Notes under the pieces: model-generated
Databases searched by the model: none
Told to the model about the DNA's origin: nothing
What the model saw: only the letters and a program-made list of their open reading frames with translations
Origin: Octopus vulgaris
Taxonomy: Eukaryota
Length of the DNA: 64,000 nucleotides
NCBI GenBank assembly: GCA_951406725.2
Contig: OX597819.1
Span: 58,528,001-58,592,000, forward strand
Reading direction: 5' to 3'
Shown: positions 638 through 40,574 of the stretch, in pieces
Layout: every line of letters starts with the position of its first letter
How positions within the stretch are numbered: position 1 is the first letter of the stretch
Translations under genes and position numbers: made by a program

Positions 638-1967
638 TATAGGAAAAGTAGAAATTGAAAATGCACTGAGAATAGTTAAAATATTTTTTTATTAATATAT
701 TTAAAGTCCTAACCGGTTTCACAGTTCACACTGATTTTCAAAAGGCTCAAATAGAAAAACGTGCCTTATGTCGCAGCTGTCTTGCTTCTGACTAGTGTTT
801 GAAGTTTGCCCTGTTTTTATAGGGATTTCATAGCTCAAATTAGTATATGTTTTGAATAGGATTTGATTGTTAGAGGATAGTCATATGACTGGTCTTAGAA
901 ATTTTTGCAGGTTTCCCGCTACGTCAAAAAATGTCGCTGCCCCAATTGCGGGACCTGCATCAACCTTATTGAAGAAAAAGCATACAGATTCAAATCAGGA
1001 CTGACTTTTACCGTAAAAAATCACATTACATGTTCATAGAATTGAATATACGCTATCAAATGTTAATGATGTAATGAAGATTACACAGGTCAAACAAAGC
1101 TTACTCTAAGAAATAGATTGACCATTCACCGACAACAAATACGAGATCCCCGCACTAGACAGATATGTGCAAAAAATAAGTCTCCCAAATTCCAGGTCTT
1201 CCCATTCTACCTATGTTAAGCGAATACCACAGATGAAACTCGAATAAACAAAGAAAATACTTTCATACAAAAGTACAAACCAAGATTTTACAAACTTTAA
1301 CACAGCAGATACACAAATAACTTCACACACACAAAAGTCATTCTTCCACTTATAATGAGGAATCTACAGAGCTAACAACCTATACTTTAGTCTCTAGACT
1401 ACATACAAACGACTCCTATTCACTCTCACAGACTAAATTTGGAGTGTCCTGGTTATAACTAAACATGTTCACTCAACCGTGTCAGCCTTCTTTTTCGGCA
1501 TAAAATATACTGTCACGTGACACTAATGCACGGACGTAGCGGGAAACGTACAGAATGTGTTCTTTCTCTACAAACACTTGACAGAAAACATTCAGAGTAT
1601 TGATTATTTGGACTTGTTCAGTTAACTCTGTCATCCTTAACTTAATACGCCAAATATTGTCACTTGGAACTAACACACAGATGTAGCGGAAAACCGACAA
1701 AAATTTCTAAGACCAGCCATGTGGCTATTCTCTTCCAATCAAATACTATTCAAAATATATACTAATTTGAGCCATGAACTCCCTATAAAAACAGGGCAAG
1801 CTTCAAACACCAGTCAGAAGCAAGACACTTGTGACATAAGTCACGTCATTCTATTTGAACTTTTTGAAAATCAGAGTAAACTGTGAAACCAGTTAAATTT
1901 TTAAACATAATAATAAAAAGTATCTTAACTATTCTCAGTGCATTCTCATCTTCTATTTCTTCCTATA
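638..1967 (+). mobile_element. 5'-truncated Penelope-like retroelement with inverted pseudo-LTR
   Basis: 638-907 is a diverged reverse complement of 1698-1967. The arms enclose a GIY-YIG endonuclease remnant, and each arm holds a decayed hammerhead-like core. Confidence 0.8.
929..1300 (+). pseudogene. GIY-YIG endonuclease domain of a Penelope-like element (in-frame stops)
   Basis: Manual translation from 929: KCRCPNCGTC...HITCS*N*IYAIKC**CNEDYTGQTKLTLRNRLTIHRQQIRDPR...FPFYLC*...RINKENTFIQKYKPRF. This gives a Cys-rich linker, xIY..YxG, and the conserved R/H/E residues. Confidence 0.8.
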
Positions 1968-5689: not shown

Positions 5690-6200
5690 GTTTTACTGTT
5701 CCACCTTCAAATTATATTTTTAATGCGCAAGTTAGGTGGTTGATTTATTTTTGTGAAAATCCAAGTTCAGCCAGACTGTCAGTTAGGTATTTACTCACAA
5801 AGCCAAGTCCATCAATTATAATTGATTTATACCAATAATAATTATTATTGGTACAAATCTAAATTTCTAATATGGATATTGAAGCTGAAACTTTCGAAAC
5901 AGTTGTCCATAGTTCTCGTATTTCTCTGATTTTCAAAGAGATATTCACATCAGCAAGACAGCAAACCCTTTTTCTTTGTCTGTCCCAAACAACAATATCT
6001 GGCCTGCTCTGCTTACCTTTGATAGATGTTTTGATGTTTTGATGGGAATGTTCCACCAGTATTCATGTATGTATGCATGCATGCAACTAGGAAAAAGTAG
6101 TGACACACATCCTACAACCATTAGAAACTTATTTATGAAGAACATGTTTTTGGCCACCAGATAAGAATTTGTAGAAACAACACGATTTGACAACACTGTT
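5690..6200 (-). mobile_element. REL-endonuclease LINE remnant (R4/Dong-like)
   Basis: Minus-strand RPDIVVWD...ADVNISLKI and KFRFVPIII motifs, with frameshifts. Confidence 0.6.
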
Positions 6201-29939: not shown

Positions 29940-30710
29940 TTGAGGTTTTGTGACAGCAAATCTTTAATCTCAAAAATCTTTCTTAAGATTCCTGCCAAAT
30001 ACAGGATTGCATTTGTCTGCACGAGTACCAATTCCAATATTCCTCAGCCTCATAGATAGCAGTTTGGGTATTATGCCAAGTGCACCAATTACAACAAGAA
30101 TAATTGTTGTCTTCGTCTTCTACAATCTCTTCAACTGTTTAACCGGGTCCTGATATTTTTAAACTGTTTCAATGTCTTTCGTATTCACTCAGTTATAAAG
30201 TATATGATATTCTTTTCTACTCTAGGCACAAGCCCCAAATTTTGGGAGAGGGGGGAGGGTCAGTCGATTGGATCGACCCTAGTACGCAACTAGAACTTAA
30301 TTTATCGATTCCAAAAGGATGAAAGGCAAAGTCAACCTCGGCGGAATTTGAAATCAGAACATAAAGACAGGCGAAAGACCGCTAAGCATTTCGCCCGGCG
30401 TGCTAACGTTTTTGCAAGTTCGCCGCCTTAAACTTTTCTCTATATTCTTTTCTACTCTAGGCACAAGGCCGAAATTTTGGGGGAAGGGGTCAGTCGATTA
30501 GATCGACCTCAGTACGCAACTACTACTTAATTTATCGACCCCAAAATGATGAAAAGCAAAGTCGATCTCGGTGGAATTTGAACTCAGCATCTATGATTTT
30601 ACACTGGTTGTTTCATTTGTTCTTAATCATATCTGACTCTTTGCTTCAATAGTATCGTCAGCCTTTACAGAGAAGTTCCATAAAATCCTGTAATTCTTAT
30701 CCTCTTACTT
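29940..30710 (-). mobile_element. REL-endonuclease LINE remnant (R4/Dong-like) split by two minus-strand family 1 SINEs (about 30207-30588)
   Basis: Minus-strand KYQD...VVIGALGIIPK and RILWNF motifs on either side of the SINEs. Confidence 0.55.
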
Positions 30711-30715
30711 CGAAC

Positions 30716-30750
<35 letters not shown>

Positions 30751-30755
<5 letters not shown>

Positions 30756-31262
30756 TTATATAGGATAAATTTTTTCGAAAAAAATTTATCAATGGCCAGC
30801 ATATTAAAAAATACCTTTAAAGGTTAGATTTATAAATAATTTATAAAACAAGGGCAAAAGAAAAAATTCTAATGCCAAATATGCCGAAAATAGACAAATT
30901 GTCAACAACCATTATAATTTATCACTATTAAAATGCGTCTCGAAACAAGCTGACAGAAATTTCTAAAAAATTCCGTTATTACCGTATTGGTCCCAATTTC
31001 AGAGTTAATTCATAAGAATTTTCTCCTCGTCAGCGATAAATACGTAAGACATAAATGAAATACTTACTCAGACCCGTGGAGAAAGCAAGCACTAAGTCAT
31101 GAGCAGACCTAAGTACCCCAAATATATCCAAAATAGAAAATCTTCAGCATATCTCGAGACACGTTTTATAAGTTATTTATAAATTTAACCTTTAAAGGTA
31201 TTTTTTAATATGCTGACCATTGCTAAAGTTTTTTTCGAAAAGTCTTATCCTATATAAGATGT
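30751..31262 (-). mobile_element. Penelope-like pLTR remnant with inverted arms
   Basis: 30751-30849 is the reverse complement of about 31163-31262; a hammerhead fold lies between them; abuts (TA)n. Confidence 0.7.
30979..31039 (-). ncRNA. Type I hammerhead ribozyme fold
   Basis: UUAUCG-CUGACGA-GGAG..AAUUC/GAAUU..CUCU-GAAA-UUGG-GA-CCAA-UA-CGGUAA: canonical core and all three stems; AUA triplet. Confidence 0.75.
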
Positions 31263-31489
31263 AAATTTAATAGTGTTCACTTCCGGACTCTCTCACTCTG
31301 TGAAAGTTTCTAGTTCGAATCGCACGAAAGCTACGTTGTTTTCCTCATTCCGTAAACAGTGGCTTTTAACAGGTGGAGAGCTGAACCATCCTGGGGTACA
31401 GAGGATTCGCAATCTAGACTAGGGTCTGAAAGTTTACCACCCCATAGTTGGTTACACCATGGTTCCTCTGCTTTGTGGCAGAAGTAGGA

Positions 31490-31670
31490 AGAAAGAGTGA
31501 GAGAAAGTTGTGGTGAAAGAGTACAGCGGAGTTCACCCCGCCCCCCGCCGGAACCTCGTGGAGCTTAGGTGATTTTGCTCAATAAACACTCACAATGCCA
31601 GGTCTGGTAATCGAAACTGCGTTCTTAAGACCGCGAGTCCGCTGCCCTAACCACTGGGCCATTGCGCCTC
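31490..31670 (-). mobile_element. tRNA-derived SINE family 3
   Basis: Minus strand starts AGGCGCAATGGCCCAGTGGTTAGGGCAGCGGAC; related copies at 55295-55597 and 61704-61981. Confidence 0.8.
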
Positions 31671-32249
31671 AACTTCTGCTGTTGTTGCTGTTTAGTTATG
31701 TATTATGATCAACCAAACTTTCACTCAAAAGGTTTTCCAGCCATGGTCATTTTTGTCTTTTCCCTGTGTCTAAGAATCCAGAACTACATTATTCGGTATG
31801 TACGTTTTAAAGGCAATGGTATCTAATTTGAAGAAGATTAGGTTGTTATTCCAGCTGGCTGAGCGATGATATACAGGCTTCTTCGTCTCGGCAATCTGTT
31901 ACATTGGTAAAGTAGAGAATGATTCTAACCTCGGTAAACATCATAACAATCTACCATGCTCGTATCATAATGTTAATAGTGGACCATTGAGAAATCGTGA
32001 GTCAGACTTCGATCAAAGTACGGTTCGGCTGTATTAGAAGTAGACTAGAAACAAGTCATATCATAATTGAATTAGAGAGTTAAATCATAACAGTCATGAT
32101 ATAATAGAGTTGAATCCTAGTAGAGTTGGATGACAGCGACGATATGTCTGAGCCAAGAATTTCTGCTGAGAATAAGGACACTTTCTAAAAATAAAAATAT
32201 AAAATAACATCAAAGCGTATTAATGTCTGAAAGCCATAATGTTTCAAAT

Positions 32250-32339
<90 letters not shown>

Positions 32340-34019
32340 ACACATACTCATTCATTCACTCATTCGCAAATACCAACAAATACACACAATACACACACAC
32401 ACAAACACACATGCACATGCATACAATCTCACTCACGCAGACAGATACCAACCAACATACATGTATTAGGGGTGTTTGAGATAATTAGAAGGAAAGAAAC
32501 CCTCTCATTCGTAATGGATACGTCGCACTCCCTTGAGAGCAGTTAAAACACTTTTGATCTCCATCTGGCTCCCAGAATTTTGGCATAGAATTCCAGGGCA
32601 GCATATACAAATATACTATAGTCATTTATTGCATTACCAAGCTTCATTTCACAAAAGTGCACAAATTTGTAAGAAGGCAGTGTAAGTGCTTAAATCGACA
32701 CCAGTAAATGACTGGTGCATTGTAGGTTTTAATGTTAATCGCTTTCGGAGTGACGCAAGAAAAATTTGAGGAGTGTAGACGTTGAACCCTGAACGTTGAA
32801 CCCTGATACTACGATGTATCTGATACGGTATTCTATTGATATGCAATCACACAGAAATAACCTCAGCGTGAATAGCCTCATTAACCTCTATTCAGACACA
32901 ATGCTGAGATGCATGCAAACTACAAGAAATGCATAGAAATTCAGCCTTATTCATTTTCCTTGTAGCCACAAACAAAATCTTGGATCCTCATCAGCGAAGA
33001 AATTTCGATATGCTAGAAATAGCAGTCAAACTTCCTTCAAATCATCTGGCTATCGATTTTTAAGAAGAGGACACATTCAGTAATATGATCTTGAGCACAT
33101 TGTCGGAGTATGGGAAGAAAAGATTAGATGGTCACAGTAAGAATGTCATTCGGTCGTAAGTGTAATTGAACTGAACTGATCTTGGCTTGAACAACATTAG
33201 CAAGCAAAAAGATGATGAGCCAACGATGGAGACTCTAAGTCTACGTACTTAATGAGCCTGTTAGAAGCTAATTTTCTCTCAAATCACACCGTTTCTTTTT
33301 TTTTTTTTTTTTTTTTTTTCACAGTGGAACGGCTTTGATCATATTCAGTCAAGGCTGACTTGGCACAAAACAACAACGACATTAACAAATTTGTTAGTAC
33401 GATATGCCCAGATTGTAGCAAGCATTATGTACAATTAACCACATGTCAAAACAACCTGGCGGAAGTATTGTATATCCAGAATCTGTGCCGCACCTAGATG
33501 TTTTGCTCGATCAGAGCTGATCTGTAGCTACACAACGCCTTATCTTCCACTGTTGACCCAGCTGTTTTGGAGCAGTTCTCATTTCACCCATCATCTGATT
33601 AACTTGACATACCAACCATCATTAGAAGATATCGAGAACGTCGTCAGGCAGATTGCTTTAGTAAGCAGTAAGCCTTGAGATTATCAGTATGTTCAACGGT
33701 ATCTTGCTCAGCTCCTAGGAGACCATGATTGATGAATTCAATGATGCCACCATTACCATAGTTTAAAACATTTGGTTCTCAATCGGGGTCCACATGACCC
33801 TTGGAGATTTTGTTAACAATTTTGAGTAATAATTTGATTATACTTTTACTATGTACAAAATATGTTGGCAGTAGCTTGCTTACCAACCACATGGTTCCGG
33901 GTTCAGTCCCACTGCGTGGAACCTTGGGCAAGTGTCTTCTACTATAGCCTCGGGCCGACCAAAGCCTTGTGAGTGAATTTGGTAGACGGAAACTGAAAGA
34001 AGCCCGACGTATATATATA

Positions 34020-34068
<49 letters not shown>

Positions 34069-34355
34069 ATAAAGGGTGAAATTAATTAATTAGGGATAAT
34101 TATCAATTACACCAAGTAGATTTCGGCATGTAAAAGCCCCATTCGAGGAAAATTTAAGTAATACTAAGTAATTAAGGGTTTAGCAACGAATTGCCTCACC
34201 AACACACCGAATTTAGAAATAGCAGTCAAAGAGATATAGCTATTCCTTCTACTAAAAGGGGGATCTCAGTAAAAACACAGCACTTGAAAGGCAAACACAG
34301 ACAGGTAAGAAAGAAAGAATGAAATGACGGCAATCTATCATGCAATTTTAAGTTA

Positions 34356-34447
34356 CCTACGGACGTACGTTTCGAGATCAAGTTTTAGGATAGCATAAGA
34401 ATTAGAAAATTCTACTTTACCCAAACTTCTTCTCTCATCGGCGCAGG
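34356..34447 (-). ncRNA. Type I hammerhead ribozyme fold (inverted copy)
   Basis: Reverse complement of 34990-35081. Confidence 0.7.
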
Positions 34448-34989
34448 ATACGACAATTATGAATAATTGTATATTAAATTTTGAGATACTAGAATGCATC
34501 ATCTCAACTCAGTGTCAGAGCGAGCCAAAGCATGACCAGTACCACGAAATTCAAAGTTTGAATGAAAGTTTGTGTCACCAGATCCCCCTTTTAGTAGAAG
34601 GAATAGCTATATCTCTTTGACTGCTATTTCTAAATTCGGTGTGTTGGTGAGGCAATTCGTTGCTAAACCCTTAATTACTTAGTATTACTTAAATTTTCCT
34701 CGAATGGGGCTTTTACATGCCGAAATCTACTTGGTGTAATTGATAATTATCCCTAATTAATTAATTTCACCCTTTATTATTATTACTGATAACCATATAT
34801 TATCCCAGTGAATGACCGCAGCATTTGGTCTTGGCTACACGCGGGTGGAAGGGGGCTGGTGACACAAACTTTCATTCAAACTTTGAATTTCGTGGTACTG
34901 GTCATGCTTTGGCTCGCTCTGACACTGAGTTGAGATGATGCATTCTAGTATCTCAAAATTTAATATACAATTATTCATAATTGTCGTAT

Positions 34990-35081
34990 CCTGCGCCGAT
35001 GAGAGAAGAAGTTTGGGTAAAGTAGAATTTTCTAATTCTTATGCTATCCTAAAACTTGATCTCGAAACGTACGTCCGTAGG
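34990..35081 (+). ncRNA. Type I hammerhead ribozyme fold with variant CCGAUGA core
   Basis: Stem I CCUGCG/CGUAGG; core CCGAUGA; long stem II GAGA...UCUC; GAAA; palindromic stem III ACGUACGU; GUC triplet with predicted cut after 35075. Confidence 0.7.
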
Positions 35082-35278
35082 TAACTTAAAATTGCATGAT
35101 AGATTGCCGTCATTTCATTCTTTCTTTCTTACCTGTCTGTGTTTGCCTTTCAAGTGCTGTGTTTTTACTGAGCTCCCCCTTTTAGTAGAAGGAATAGCTA
35201 TATCTCTTTGACTGCTATTTCTAAATTCGGTGTGTTGGTGAGGCAATTCGTTGCTAAACCCTTAATTACTTAGTATTA

Positions 35279-35328
<50 letters not shown>

Positions 35329-35843
35329 TATATACATACATATATATGTGTGTGTGTATGTTTGTGTCCCCCCCCAACATCGCTTGACAACCGATGATGG
35401 TGTGTTTACGTCCCCGTAACTTAGCGGTTCGGCAAAAGATACCGATAGAATAAGTTCTAGGCTTACAAAGAATAAGTCCTGGGGTCGATTTGTTCAAATA
35501 AAGGCGATGCTCCAGCATGGCCCCAGTCAAACGGCTGAAACAAGCAAAAGAGTAAAGAGAGTAATATTTAATTATAGAAAATATAATAGTATATTTTTAA
35601 ACATCCGATGGCTATGAGAAGCTACCCGAGTAAAATAGGAATGAAAGGGGTCTATAGATTAAAAATGGCTTCAGAACCATAGGTTCAAACCAGTTATAAA
35701 ACAAAGTTTGAAAAATTGCTGAAGCATGACTTTCTGCAGATAACGTACTGATATGCTGGTAACATAACGTATGTTTAGTTAGGTTATAGTTAACCGAAGA
35801 ACTAGCAACAAGGCTATACGCAGACCACACGCCACTAGTAGGT

Positions 35844-35922
<79 letters not shown>

Positions 35923-36346
35923 GTCTGTCTATCTCACTGTCTGTGGCAGAAACGTTAGCACGCCGGGCGAAATGCTTAGCGGTATTTCTTCTGCCGTTAC
36001 GTTCTGAGTTCAAATTCCGCAGAGGTCGACTTTGCCTTTCATCCTTTCAGGGTCGATTAAATAAGTGCCAGTTACGCACTGGAGTCGATATAATCGACTT
36101 AATCCCTTTGTCTGTCCTTGTTTGTCCTCTCTATGTTTAGCTCCTTGTGGGTAGTAAAGAAATAGGTATTTCGCCTGAGTTCAAATTTGGTCGAGGTCAA
36201 CTTTGCATTTCATCCTTCTAGATCGCTTTTTTTTCCGTTCCCTTTTGATCGGAATTTTATTTTGTTCCCTTTTTTTCCTTTTTCTTTTTCATTTTCGGAA
36301 AGAAAAGCTCTACATTTGTATTTGTCCCCTCAGCCAAGAAAGAAAG

Positions 36347-36402
<56 letters not shown>

Positions 36403-36917
36403 TTATCTATCTATCTATTTAACTTTCTGTCTGTCTATCTATCTATTGATCGATCGATCGATCTTAAAACCATCAGGCTTTGGTAATTTCTATATTGTCC
36501 AAAAAAGAGAATTTTGGAGGATTTTTTGAATTTAAAAGAAAAGAAAAGGAAAATAATTTTTTGTCATTGTTTTTGGATATTTCTGCATTGCCCCAAAGTT
36601 TCTACTTCGGGGGGTTTCCTAACATTTCATGTAATCTATTAAAATCTAACCCTTTTACATTGCCTCAGCTTTTCATCTATTCGTGTTCATTTCTGAATTG
36701 TTACTTTCTTTTACGTGTTTAGTCTCTCTTGCTTTGTTCATAAGTGCTTTGATGTATATTAACTTCTCTTAGCTTAGTGTCCACTGATTTATTCAGATAT
36801 TATACTTGACGCTCCCCTTTCACGTACCCAGTCGCTCCTACAAACGGCGTTACCCTGTTATCTCTCTATAGTAGACAAAAGAAAAGCTATTATAGGTACA
36901 ATATTGCTCAATTACTA

Positions 36918-37690
36918 AGGCAGCGAGCTGGCAGAAACGTTAGCACGCCGGGCGAAATGCTTAGTGGTATTTTATCTGCCTTTACGTTCTGAGTTCAAAT
37001 TCCGCCGAGGTCGTCTTTGTCTTTCATCCTTTCGGAGTCGATAAATTAAGTAGCAGTTACGCACTGGGGTCGATGTAATCGACTTAATCCGTTTGTCTGT
37101 CCTTGTTTGTCCTAAAGAAATAGGTATTTCGTCTGTCTTTACATTCTGAGTTCAAATTCTGCCGAGGTCAACTTTGCCTTTCATCCTTTCGGGGTCGATA
37201 CAAAAAGTAGCAGATACGCACTGGGGTCGACATAATCCACTTAATCCCTTTGTCTGTCCTTGTTTGTCCCCTCTGTGTGTAGCCCCTTGTCGACAGTAAA
37301 GAAATAAGAAACGTTAGCACGCCGGGTAAAATGCTTTGTGGTAGTTCGTCTGCCGCTACGTTCTGAGTTCAAATTCCGCCGAAGTCGACTTTGCCTTTCA
37401 TCCTTTCAGGGTCGATTAAATAAGTACCAGTTACACACTGGGATCGATATAATCGACTTAATCTATTTGTCTGTCCTTGTTTGTCCTCTCTGTGTTTAGC
37501 CCCTTGAGGGTAGTAAAAAAATAGGTATTTCGTCTGTCTTTATGTTCTGAGTTCAAATTCCGCCGAGGTCAACTTTGCCTTTCATCCTTTCGGGGTCGAT
37601 GAATTCAGTAGCAGTTGCGTACTGGAGTCGATGTAATCGACTGGCCCCTTTCCCTAAAATTTCGGGCCTTGTGCCTAGAGCAGAAAAGAT
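36918..37690 (+). mobile_element. Head-to-tail array of four SINE family 1 units
   Basis: TTCTGAGTTCAAATTC followed by the core recurs at about 36987, 37144, 37361 and 37545. Confidence 0.9.
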
Positions 37691-37951
37691 TACTATCATA
37701 ATGTTATTTAGTCTACTTCTCAGTCATACTCTAAATGAAGTCCTTCAAGATCTCGACCGTGCGGGTACCAACCGAATAGATATGTCTTTGATTTGCCACG
37801 ACTAAGTGCCTGAGCGAAACATGTTTGAGCGATTGATCCTCGAAATTTTCTTTACAAATGAATGTTCTCTTCACACACACACGCACACACACACACACGC
37901 ACACACACACACGCACACACACACACACGCACACACACACACACACACATA

Positions 37952-38472
37952 CCGTTTATCCTCGAGTATAATCTGCATTTTTTTCCCAAAATTTAAAAGT
38001 CAAAATCCCTAGTGCGTTCTATATACGAGGTTAAAAATTAAAAATATTTTCTAAGTAATGTCCGAGTCTCTATTTGCTGTCCGGCAATGTTTATTCAGAC
38101 GCATTTTGTGATGTCGGGCGCGAAAATACCTTAAGCTAAGCCTGAAAGCAATGAAGTCATAAAAGAATCATCCATAACTTGCAGTAAGCAACATTTATTA
38201 AACGTTATTACTGTTATTACTGTTATTTCTTTATTTTCTGCAAACAAAATGCACAAAAAAGCTACACGTTTGCATTATGTTATATATTCAATAATAATAA
38301 AGGACGTTACCGTATACATTTTTACAAACCAAGGACTTTATATAGACCTCCTTGACTCAAGTTAGAGAAGGGGTGAGTGTTATACACAAGGTTTAGGTTT
38401 TTCAGAGATACAGCCCCCCAACTATCCCCTGCGTATTATACTCAAGGGCGGACTATACTCGAGGATTTACGG
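37952..38472. mobile_element. Tigger/pogo-type MITE
   Basis: TIRs CCGT..ATCCTCGAGTATA / TATACTCGAGGATTTACGG with TA flanks. Confidence 0.8.
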
Positions 38473-38487
38473 TATATATATATATAG

Positions 38488-38680
38488 TTTATTAATAAAG
38501 CTGCAAAAGCATCACAAAAGCTGTTACTCGGAGTTTCTGAGACTTTTGCTGCTTAAGAAACTCTGAGTAACAGTTTTTGTGATGTCATTGCAGTTTTATT
38601 AATTAAGCATATTACTCTACCTCTGGTATTTGAGTACTATTTTTTCCACCTTGTTTCACATTTATGTGCTTACTCTGGTG
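38488..38680. mobile_element. Short Penelope-like inverted pLTR fragment
   Basis: About 50-bp inverted arms (38488-38538 and about 38557-38607), each starting at GAAACTC.GAGTAACAG, which resembles a hammerhead 3' half; abuts (TA)n. Confidence 0.5.
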
Positions 38681-38699
38681 TATATATATATATACACGC

Positions 38700-38750
<51 letters not shown>

Positions 38751-39649
38751 TGCATGTATGCGTTTTTGTTTACCAAATTCTATTATGCGCGCGTGTGTGT
38801 GTGGGTACGAACAAACGAGCTGGCAAAATTGTTAGCACGCCGGAAAAATACTCATTTCTTCCGGCTTTACATTTTGGGTTCAAATTCCACCAAGGCCGAG
38901 TCTGCCATTCATCCTATTCCGGTCGATAAAATAAGTACCAGTTGCGTACTGGGGTCGAGGTAATCGTCTAGCACCCCACTGCCTTGAACCTGTTAGTAGA
39001 AAGAACTATTATTTAAATGTATTCATGTTTTACTCTAGCTGACAAAATTATGACACAATGGCTGAAAAGTTACATGAATTTAGTGCGTCGGTTTGTTTAG
39101 GGTTCACAAATAAGAAAAAAGAATACACAACAAGAAGAAAAGGAAGGGATACATTTTAGTAGGGAAGTAGGGTACAGAATGGATGAAGTCGAAGGGGGTC
39201 GACGACGATGGAATAGAGAGGGGATAATGTCTTATGTCAGGTATTTGATAAAAATCACCAACACATCGCTTTCATTAATACTCTCTCTCTCTCTCTCTCT
39301 CTTTCTCTCTTTTAATCACTCCCAGTCTCCAGACTTTTCGCCACCACCACCACCACCACCACCAACAACAACAACAGCAACAACAACAACAACAACAACA
39401 ACACTACCACCACCAACACCAACACCACCAACATCAACGCCAGCTCTCTTGCAGCATCGCTTCCTTGTACCATGCTACCTCCGTCGCCATCATCTGACAT
39501 AACCCACCACAGCCACCACTTCCATTAAACTAAGCACCGTTCATATCTATGTATGTATGTATGTATGTATGTATGTATGTATGTATGTATGTATGTATGT
39601 ATGTGTGTGTGTATGTATGTTTACATATATGCATATACATATAAATATA

Positions 39650-39707
<58 letters not shown>

Positions 39708-40574
39708 GTACATACATATATACACGTACGTGTGTGTACATATACACATATATACATACGTGTACATATATTTATACATACACGCACTTTGTGAGATGTA
39801 ATAAATACTGGTGCCAGGCGCAACTAGTCGATAACAACGAAATTCACTATAAAGTAGCTTTACTTTCACATGCGGGAGGAACGGCGCAAGAAAGAACAGC
39901 TGTCCTATATACCTTAACTGCCGCAGCAGCTACAATCACCACCACCACCACCGCAATCGGCAGCAGCTTCTTAACCAACAGACCCAGCACCACCACCATG
40001 AATGGCACCACCAAACACCACCACCACCCCTTGTATCCCACCTCTCTTTCTTACTCTCCCCTCTCCTATCTCTCTCTTTCACTTACTTTCTCTTCCATGC
40101 CCTCACCACTATCACCACCACCACCACCACCGCCACTACACTTAAAGAGAAACTGTCTCATAATTCTCTCTGAGTGCTTTTTAGCCAAACTCCACCCTTC
40201 TCTCTTTTCCGTTTTTTTTTTTTTTATTTCTAGCCGAGTCGCGGAATTTGTGGCGTATGTCTTATAAAGGATGTGTTGATTTTTGCATTGTAAGACATGT
40301 CTGTACCAGTATGTGTGAGTGTATGAAAATGCGTGTGTGTGTGTGTGTGTGTGTTGTGTTGGATGTGTGAGAGTAAAGATGTGTGTGTATGTGTGTCGTT
40401 TGTATGTAATGTGTGTTCTGTACACGTACACACGTATACTATTCCCGTATATATGCTATTCACACACATGCACAATTTCTAACGCCTACACACACACACA
40501 CACACACACAAACTCACACACAAACACACACACACAAACACGCGTGCGCGCATATTTAGTAGTGACATTTTTAT

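Follow-up and report, generated by a model that had tools for sequence, protein, structure and literature searches.

Two kinds of described element bear on the locus considered here, animal non-LTR retrozymes and Penelope-like elements. The mobilisation of retrozymes by Penelope elements has been put forward as a hypothesis (PMC7229834), with support from co-occurrence and pLTR phylogeny in a more recent study, the supplements of which list vertebrate, insect and coral families (bioRxiv 2026.07.22.740005). The footprint of a Penelope element is described as an inverted, 5'-truncated copy with a tail at one end (PMC8557442, PMC3846280). In vitro, RT starts at two internal sites, the tail being what lies between them, and both DNA strands are cut and extended (PMC11167929).

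The window, by which we mean the whole 64,000-nt stretch of Octopus vulgaris DNA that was analysed, holds a recent insertion, with two arms placed head to head, of a non-coding hammerhead repeat of 591 nt that is dispersed in the genome. In our judgement the repeat is quite probably a non-autonomous retrozyme, for which a Penelope-type RT/GIY-YIG protein acts in trans as the copying enzyme. The locus is made up as follows, in window coordinates.

33870..34010, + strand: 5' half of a host dispersed (SINE-like) repeat, the internal TA tract of which is the target
34011..34062, no strand: left part of the (TA)n target tract
34063..34581, - strand: inverted arm, unit 277-591 followed by 1-204, with its 3' end at fixed site B (~95-nt tail), into (TA)n
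34572..34590, no strand: head-to-head junction, the two 5' ends meeting via short imperfect microhomology
34580..35281, + strand: forward arm, the 591-nt unit (34580-35170) plus 111 nt, with its 3' end at fixed site A (unit position ~111), into (TA)n
35282..35325, no strand: right part of the (TA)n target tract
35347..35570, + strand: 3' half of the same host repeat as at 33870..34010

The flanks are two halves of one dispersed repeat that is normally joined across TA (69 matches among the fetched loci), and the locus is thus a clean insertion into a TA tract. A preliminary description of this DNA had given the forward arm one 591-nt unit and a redundancy of about 107 nt; the arrangement stands, but the redundancy measures 111 nt, with one mismatch to the unit, at 35173. 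The nearly identical inverted arm, said to start elsewhere in the unit, is borne out by the alignment, in which it has zero mismatches to the forward arm. The same is true of the coding capacity, since no ORF of 60 aa or more starts inside the element and the longest ATG ORF to do so has 53 aa; a Pfam search with seven long ORFs of the window gave zero matches. The proposal that the copies are circularly permuted and read through a unit junction is correct for the 5' ends, which are permuted across loci, but not for the 3' ends, which are fixed, and comparison across loci reduces the supposed junction at 34580 to the 5' truncation point of this particular arm. Elsewhere in the window (920-1300 and ~2000-2100) there is a decayed Penelope-type GIY-YIG fragment with an inverted arm.

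Four RNA features were delineated within the two arms.

34356..34447, - strand: second, identical hammerhead motif (inverted arm), predicted cut 34362/34361; coordinates transferred by way of the alignment
34635..34724, + strand: conserved helix 34635-34643 : 34716-34724 around an unpaired AU-rich stretch with site A (34683-34690)
34733..34800, + strand: conserved hairpin 34733-34771, then 3'-end site B (34777-34800)
34990..35081, + strand: type I hammerhead motif with the C4 core variant, a 61-nt stem II region and a palindromic stem III, predicted cut 35075/35076; from folding and covariation

Stem I of the forward motif has 6 bp (34990-34995/35076-35081), the core CCGAUGA (34996-35002) is followed by the 61-nt stem II region and then by GAAA, stem III comprises 2 bp within the palindrome ACGUACGU, and the GUC cleavage triplet ends at 35075. 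The hammerhead call rests on manual folding and covariation, because an Rfam scan of 30000-40000 gave no hammerhead at E<=1; manual fold and alignment agree with the earlier account of one type I hammerhead per unit, with a palindromic stem III, a long stem II and a U4-to-C change in both copies. A version of the motif with a short stem II had 0 matches in a pattern search of the genome. Compared with shuffles, the fold of the unit has z=-5.8 on the + strand and z=+0.45 on the - strand. The lowest-energy fold of the monomer is inactive and lies 3.9 kcal/mol below the active one; in the dimer, by computation, 8 bp of stem III pairing are possible. The U4C change reduces hammerhead activity in vitro, although a viroid that carries it is viable (PMC3088659), and by analogy a C4 core would be expected to lower self-cleavage of the unit RNA. 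The helix around the unpaired AU-rich stretch is nearly invariant among families and is followed by the hairpin; a pattern for this conserved-helix module found 3327 matches as against 11 for the control, on both strands and with ~30% double-counted. It is likely that the helix 34635-34643 : 34716-34724 belongs to an RT recognition module.

A search of the genome with the unit yielded 2022 candidates, and full units with 97-100% identity were found at 40 scored loci on many contigs. The tandem arrays and permuted ends that had been anticipated genome-wide were recovered in part: arrays run to 10 units, whereas only the 5' ends are permuted. From one hammerhead to the next, 83 cut-to-cut tandem units span 536-597 nt, and no ORF separates them. 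Searches with the exact hammerhead pattern returned 389 matches for C4 and 539 for U4, the controls 0 and 1; among the first 100 listed matches of each kind, 99 (C4) and 86 (U4) were assigned by eye to the 591-nt family. In a tree of 70 full units with a sister family as the root, the C4 units all fall into a single derived clade (support 0.996), and the median tip length is 0.002 for C4 and 0.011 for U4, C4 being oversampled. Judged by this phylogeny, U4C is a late, derived change within the family and not a defining trait. The idea that C4 causes longer arrays was discarded, as array length, by eye, tracks subfamily instead.

Two related families, one of ~593 nt with 70% identity and the other of ~562 nt with 60%, align colinearly with the whole unit, and a fourth family matches most of the unit profile. 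At least three more diverged families carry compensatory changes in stem I, stem III and the core: stem I reads CCUGCG/CGUAGG, CCCAUG/CAUGGG, UCUGAG/CUCGGG and AUUAUG/CAUAAU across four families, stem III is palindromic or nearly so in all four, and in the core of the fourth C3-G8 is replaced by U3-A8, a covariant known in Penelope hammerheads (PMC4209133). Such covariation over 30-40% divergence implies, at the level of sequence comparison, that the hammerhead structure is under selection. The family is also present in a sequencing run labelled as a second organism. Contigs of four presumed-RNA runs cover the unit, and one contig of 506 nt bridges the cut site; they come without strand, ends or a silent control, and so are no evidence on expression.

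Other repeats were encountered among these loci. At L143:1291-1886 a sister family is represented by its 3' module alone, in three tandem copies of ~200 nt that each end in TA. Randomly fetched loci contain at least eight other hammerhead-like repeat motifs (L074, L093, L094, L097, L098, L135, L136, L184), several of them with C4, suggesting that the genome is rich in hammerheads. Two loci 15 kb apart, L057 and L058 (G000:C28), have identical insertions and flanks, which may reflect a segmental duplication or an assembly duplicate.

The insertion footprint was compiled from 91 loci, namely the window, 38 top matches to the unit, and 13 + 39 loci from the hammerhead pattern lists; one duplicate was dropped from the top matches, and three overlapping and four non-family loci from the pattern lists. 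Because these loci were picked for their similarity or for having an intact hammerhead, arm length is overestimated; its median is 1.2-1.4 units, and arrays reach 10. The architecture is head-to-head at 40 loci and single-arm at 51. The 5' ends are scattered over the whole unit, and the 3' ends fall at two fixed sites ~100 nt apart, site A at unit 92-116 (mostly 106 or 111-115) and site B at 160-222 (mostly 198-221); TA-type repeats adjoin 121 of 131 terminal 3' ends. In five of the 40 head-to-head loci one end lies elsewhere, and 34 of the remaining 35 combine one A end with one B end (50% expected, p=1e-9). Sister families have their 3' ends at the same two places, one of the searches being biased toward B ends. 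Both ends of an insertion lie within (TA)n, so that a target site duplication is unreadable. At one locus, L088, a short piece of the left flank is repeated in inverted form after the single-arm insertion.

This footprint may be set beside that of an intact Penelope-like element of the same genome, which has a 784-aa RT + GIY-YIG ORF with a CxxC linker. Fourteen of its 15 two-arm insertions have one short end and one 40-nt tail, and all lie in (TA)n. The octopus family has likewise an inverted, 5'-truncated arm with a tail at one end only and a (TA)n target. The proposal of a non-autonomous hammerhead element moved by Penelope machinery is therefore strengthened, arrays, (TA)n and one-tail arms all matching the intact element. 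By the sequence-level definition the family is an animal non-LTR retrozyme, with predicted self-cleavage, as had been suspected for the window copy: each tandem unit has a type I hammerhead, there is no protein coding or LTR, copies are dispersed and mobile, and the hammerhead is under selection.

How such insertions might be made can be outlined in four steps. Tandem copies would be transcribed on the + strand (step 1), and the hammerheads would cut as dimers via the palindromic stem III, the monomers then being ligated into circles (step 2). A Penelope protein, probably a dimer, would cut both (TA)n strands and prime RT at either DNA end, using site A of the structured module for one and site B for the other (step 3). 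Each RT would run a random distance, often more than one round of the unit, and the cDNA ends would be joined by microhomology to give head-to-head arms (step 4). With the C4 core, cleavage would be slower but the element could still spread. The fullest form of this scheme, which we rate as less likely than not, is that long-lived ribozyme-made RNA circles carry their own RT-recognition module, with no sequence tie to current pLTRs, and that an asymmetric Penelope RT dimer, priming both (TA)n ends at two different sites of a single circle, then rolls around that circle. If this were true, the Penelope tail and the head-to-head and tandem structures would have one mechanism.

Several observations go against a circle. 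The 5' ends do not cluster at the predicted cut (of 127, eight lie within unit 492-512, p=0.08, and one exactly on the cut), the best fold of the monomer is inactive, and 8 of 9 Xenopus retrozyme dimers were uncleaved in vitro (bioRxiv 2026.07.22.740005). Moreover, tandems alone are not proof of a ribozyme-made circle, because the autonomous Penelope-like element, 4.4 kb long, makes full tandems too. The same Penelope-type mobilisation could act on an uncut linear multimer, or on a monomer with template jumps, the hammerhead being weak or acting elsewhere; we regard this as rather unlikely. It would account for the 112 of 127 arms that run through the predicted cut, in a biased sample, as well as for the spread of the 5' ends; the youngest sampled clade has the weakening C4, and in vitro the Penelope protein inserted uncut RNA, with the hammerhead dispensable (PMC11167929). 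However, arrays of 10 units would have to be re-expanded from arms of the median length given above, the maintenance of the hammerhead over 30-40% divergence implies selection, and variants fixed in every copy of an array require a monomer step. This last point comes from 52 multi-copy loci, where 206 variant sites are found in all copies of a locus and 45 in some; among variants private to one sampled locus, 20 are in every copy (e.g. 7/7 over both arms), 92 in a single copy and 11 partial. It points to one monomer sequence as the source of both arms, via a circle or repeated template jumps. Uniform arrays are expected from a monomer bottleneck; the competing origin is a source array that was itself uniform.

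In LINE-1 twin priming, two primers act at one target and give rise to an inverted 5' arm. The octopus arms differ in that they overlap in sequence and neither stops at the priming site of the other: in 31 simple pairs, 5' ends coincide with the start of the other arm in 0 and 1 cases (2.3 expected each). The inverted arm could instead be made without a second priming, the first cDNA or an antisense template serving for fold-back or self-priming (the model of PMC3846280). In 22 of the 31 pairs there is a register in which one arm lies wholly within the other, private variants are common to both arms, and a few junctions are palindromic (L044, L065, L066), all of which would suit fold-back. We nevertheless think it very improbable, as in the other nine pairs, the window locus included, neither arm is contained in the other and copying of one arm could not have produced them, and the 5' ends lie within 40 nt of each other in six pairs, against 4.2 expected. 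The uncontained pairs, together with the positions of the 5' ends away from the start of the other arm, mean that two RT runs are needed. The junctions overlap by at least 1 nt in 19 of the 31 pairs, are blunt in seven and gapped in five. Simple fold-back and classic twin priming do not fit these data; two RT runs, one per DNA end, do.

The preliminary description had also allowed that the repeat is a solo pLTR of a longer Penelope element. In this account the unit is the pseudo-LTR of an autonomous element outside the sample, left as solo or tandem fragments; pLTRs do carry a hammerhead and a tail module (PMC4209133), and the sample is part of the genome's Penelope families. Its chances are nevertheless slight. 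The cut-to-cut units described above have no ORF between them, and the unit is colinear along its length in families of 70% and 60% identity. An autonomous Penelope element was rejected in that the RT + GIY-YIG ORF expected between pLTRs is absent from the units and from 151 loci: no examined copy lies inside a Penelope ORF there, and tblastn with nine Penelope proteins matched three of these loci, none continuous with the 5' side of the unit. A constant tie of the copies to an RT/GIY-YIG ORF, which would have marked them as ordinary pLTRs, is thus not seen. Nor was an autonomous partner with unit sequence found among GIY-YIG loci (148 matches from 150 scored of 6136 candidates, ~50 fetched) or by the unit profile HMM on non-family loci, and every module-bearing family with long arms proved again to be a non-coding unit. 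An assembly artefact or local DNA rearrangement is scarcely credible: the window's own junction is not among the 32 listed of ~6200 contig pieces, but the architecture with fixed ends is common to 40 of 91 loci, the flanks rebuild one host repeat, and of the seven joints listed from short-read contigs of three runs, six are further head-to-head junctions.

The partner search brought up some features of the Penelope families themselves. Canonical Penelope elements have one ORF; two young intact Penelope-like families (L123:1468-5168, +; L270 and L279, -) have a second, upstream ORF of ~470 aa, which overlaps the RT/GIY-YIG ORF in another frame and gave no convincing Pfam match. Hammerhead-like motifs lie 50-110 nt before the 3' end of autonomous families (L123 ~6040-6090, and the 3' ends of L270, L099, L110 and L130), and their variant cores include U3-A8, C4 and one GCAAC instead of GAAAC. 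At L203:968-2649 (-), 4 nt of TA link a site-A arm end with a Penelope copy truncated at its 5' end, by template switch or nesting. As evidence of a template switch this join was set aside: 29 further loci of that Penelope family have no such join, and L306 has the same adjacency over a long TA tract, so that nesting in a shared target explains it.

The idea of a Penelope-mobilised retrozyme is not new; the literature searched yielded neither the footprint evidence nor a tail of ~100 nt or a strict A+B pairing. It likewise gave no report of such a hammerhead family in octopus, although supplements could hold cephalopod motifs; an octopus repeat annotation has recently active Penelope families, with ribozymes unmentioned in its main text (PMC13282606). 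The insertion footprint of a retrozyme itself matches here that of an active Penelope-like element in the same genome, which bears on the question of which enzyme mobilises retrozymes. The near-strict rule of one short end and one tail, together with the two RT runs, constrains the unsolved mechanism of Penelope integration and the origin of tails. With a 591-nt RNA that has mapped start sites and two intact candidate enzymes, both questions are testable in vitro.

In comparison with known systems, the octopus family shares with animal non-LTR retrozymes (Cervera & de la Pena 2020, PMC7229834; Li et al. bioRxiv 2026.07.22.740005) the non-coding tandems, one type I hammerhead per unit and low GC, as well as dispersed monomers to multimers alongside Penelope elements, retrozymes being already known in a mollusc (mussel). 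It differs in its unit of 591 nt, against invertebrate retrozyme circles of 170-400 nt (the range of Li et al. is 51-972), its very long stem II and its subfamily with U4C; in the main-text parts of that literature, retrozymes are not described with head-to-head arms, (TA)n targeting or two fixed 3' ends, and circular RNA is shown in the known animal retrozymes, whereas for the octopus family it is a prediction. Chlamys MRC1-type elements (PMC8557442) are likewise non-autonomous, Penelope-type, multicopy head-to-tail insertions in microsatellites, but they have 3' sequence in common with an identified partner from a clade without canonical hammerheads, in contrast to the conserved hammerhead of the octopus family, which has no partner among the sampled families. 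The remaining comparison is with EN+ Penelope-like elements that have a CxxC linker (Neptune/Nematis type), two intact families of which occur in this genome. The retrozyme has no ORF, a tail of about 95-110 nt as against 30-40, and no sequence similarity to the sampled autonomous Penelope families. It resembles them in its (TA)n targets, 5' truncation and partial tandems, in the inverted 5'-truncated arm and the tail at one end, and in a hammerhead-like motif upstream of the 3' end.
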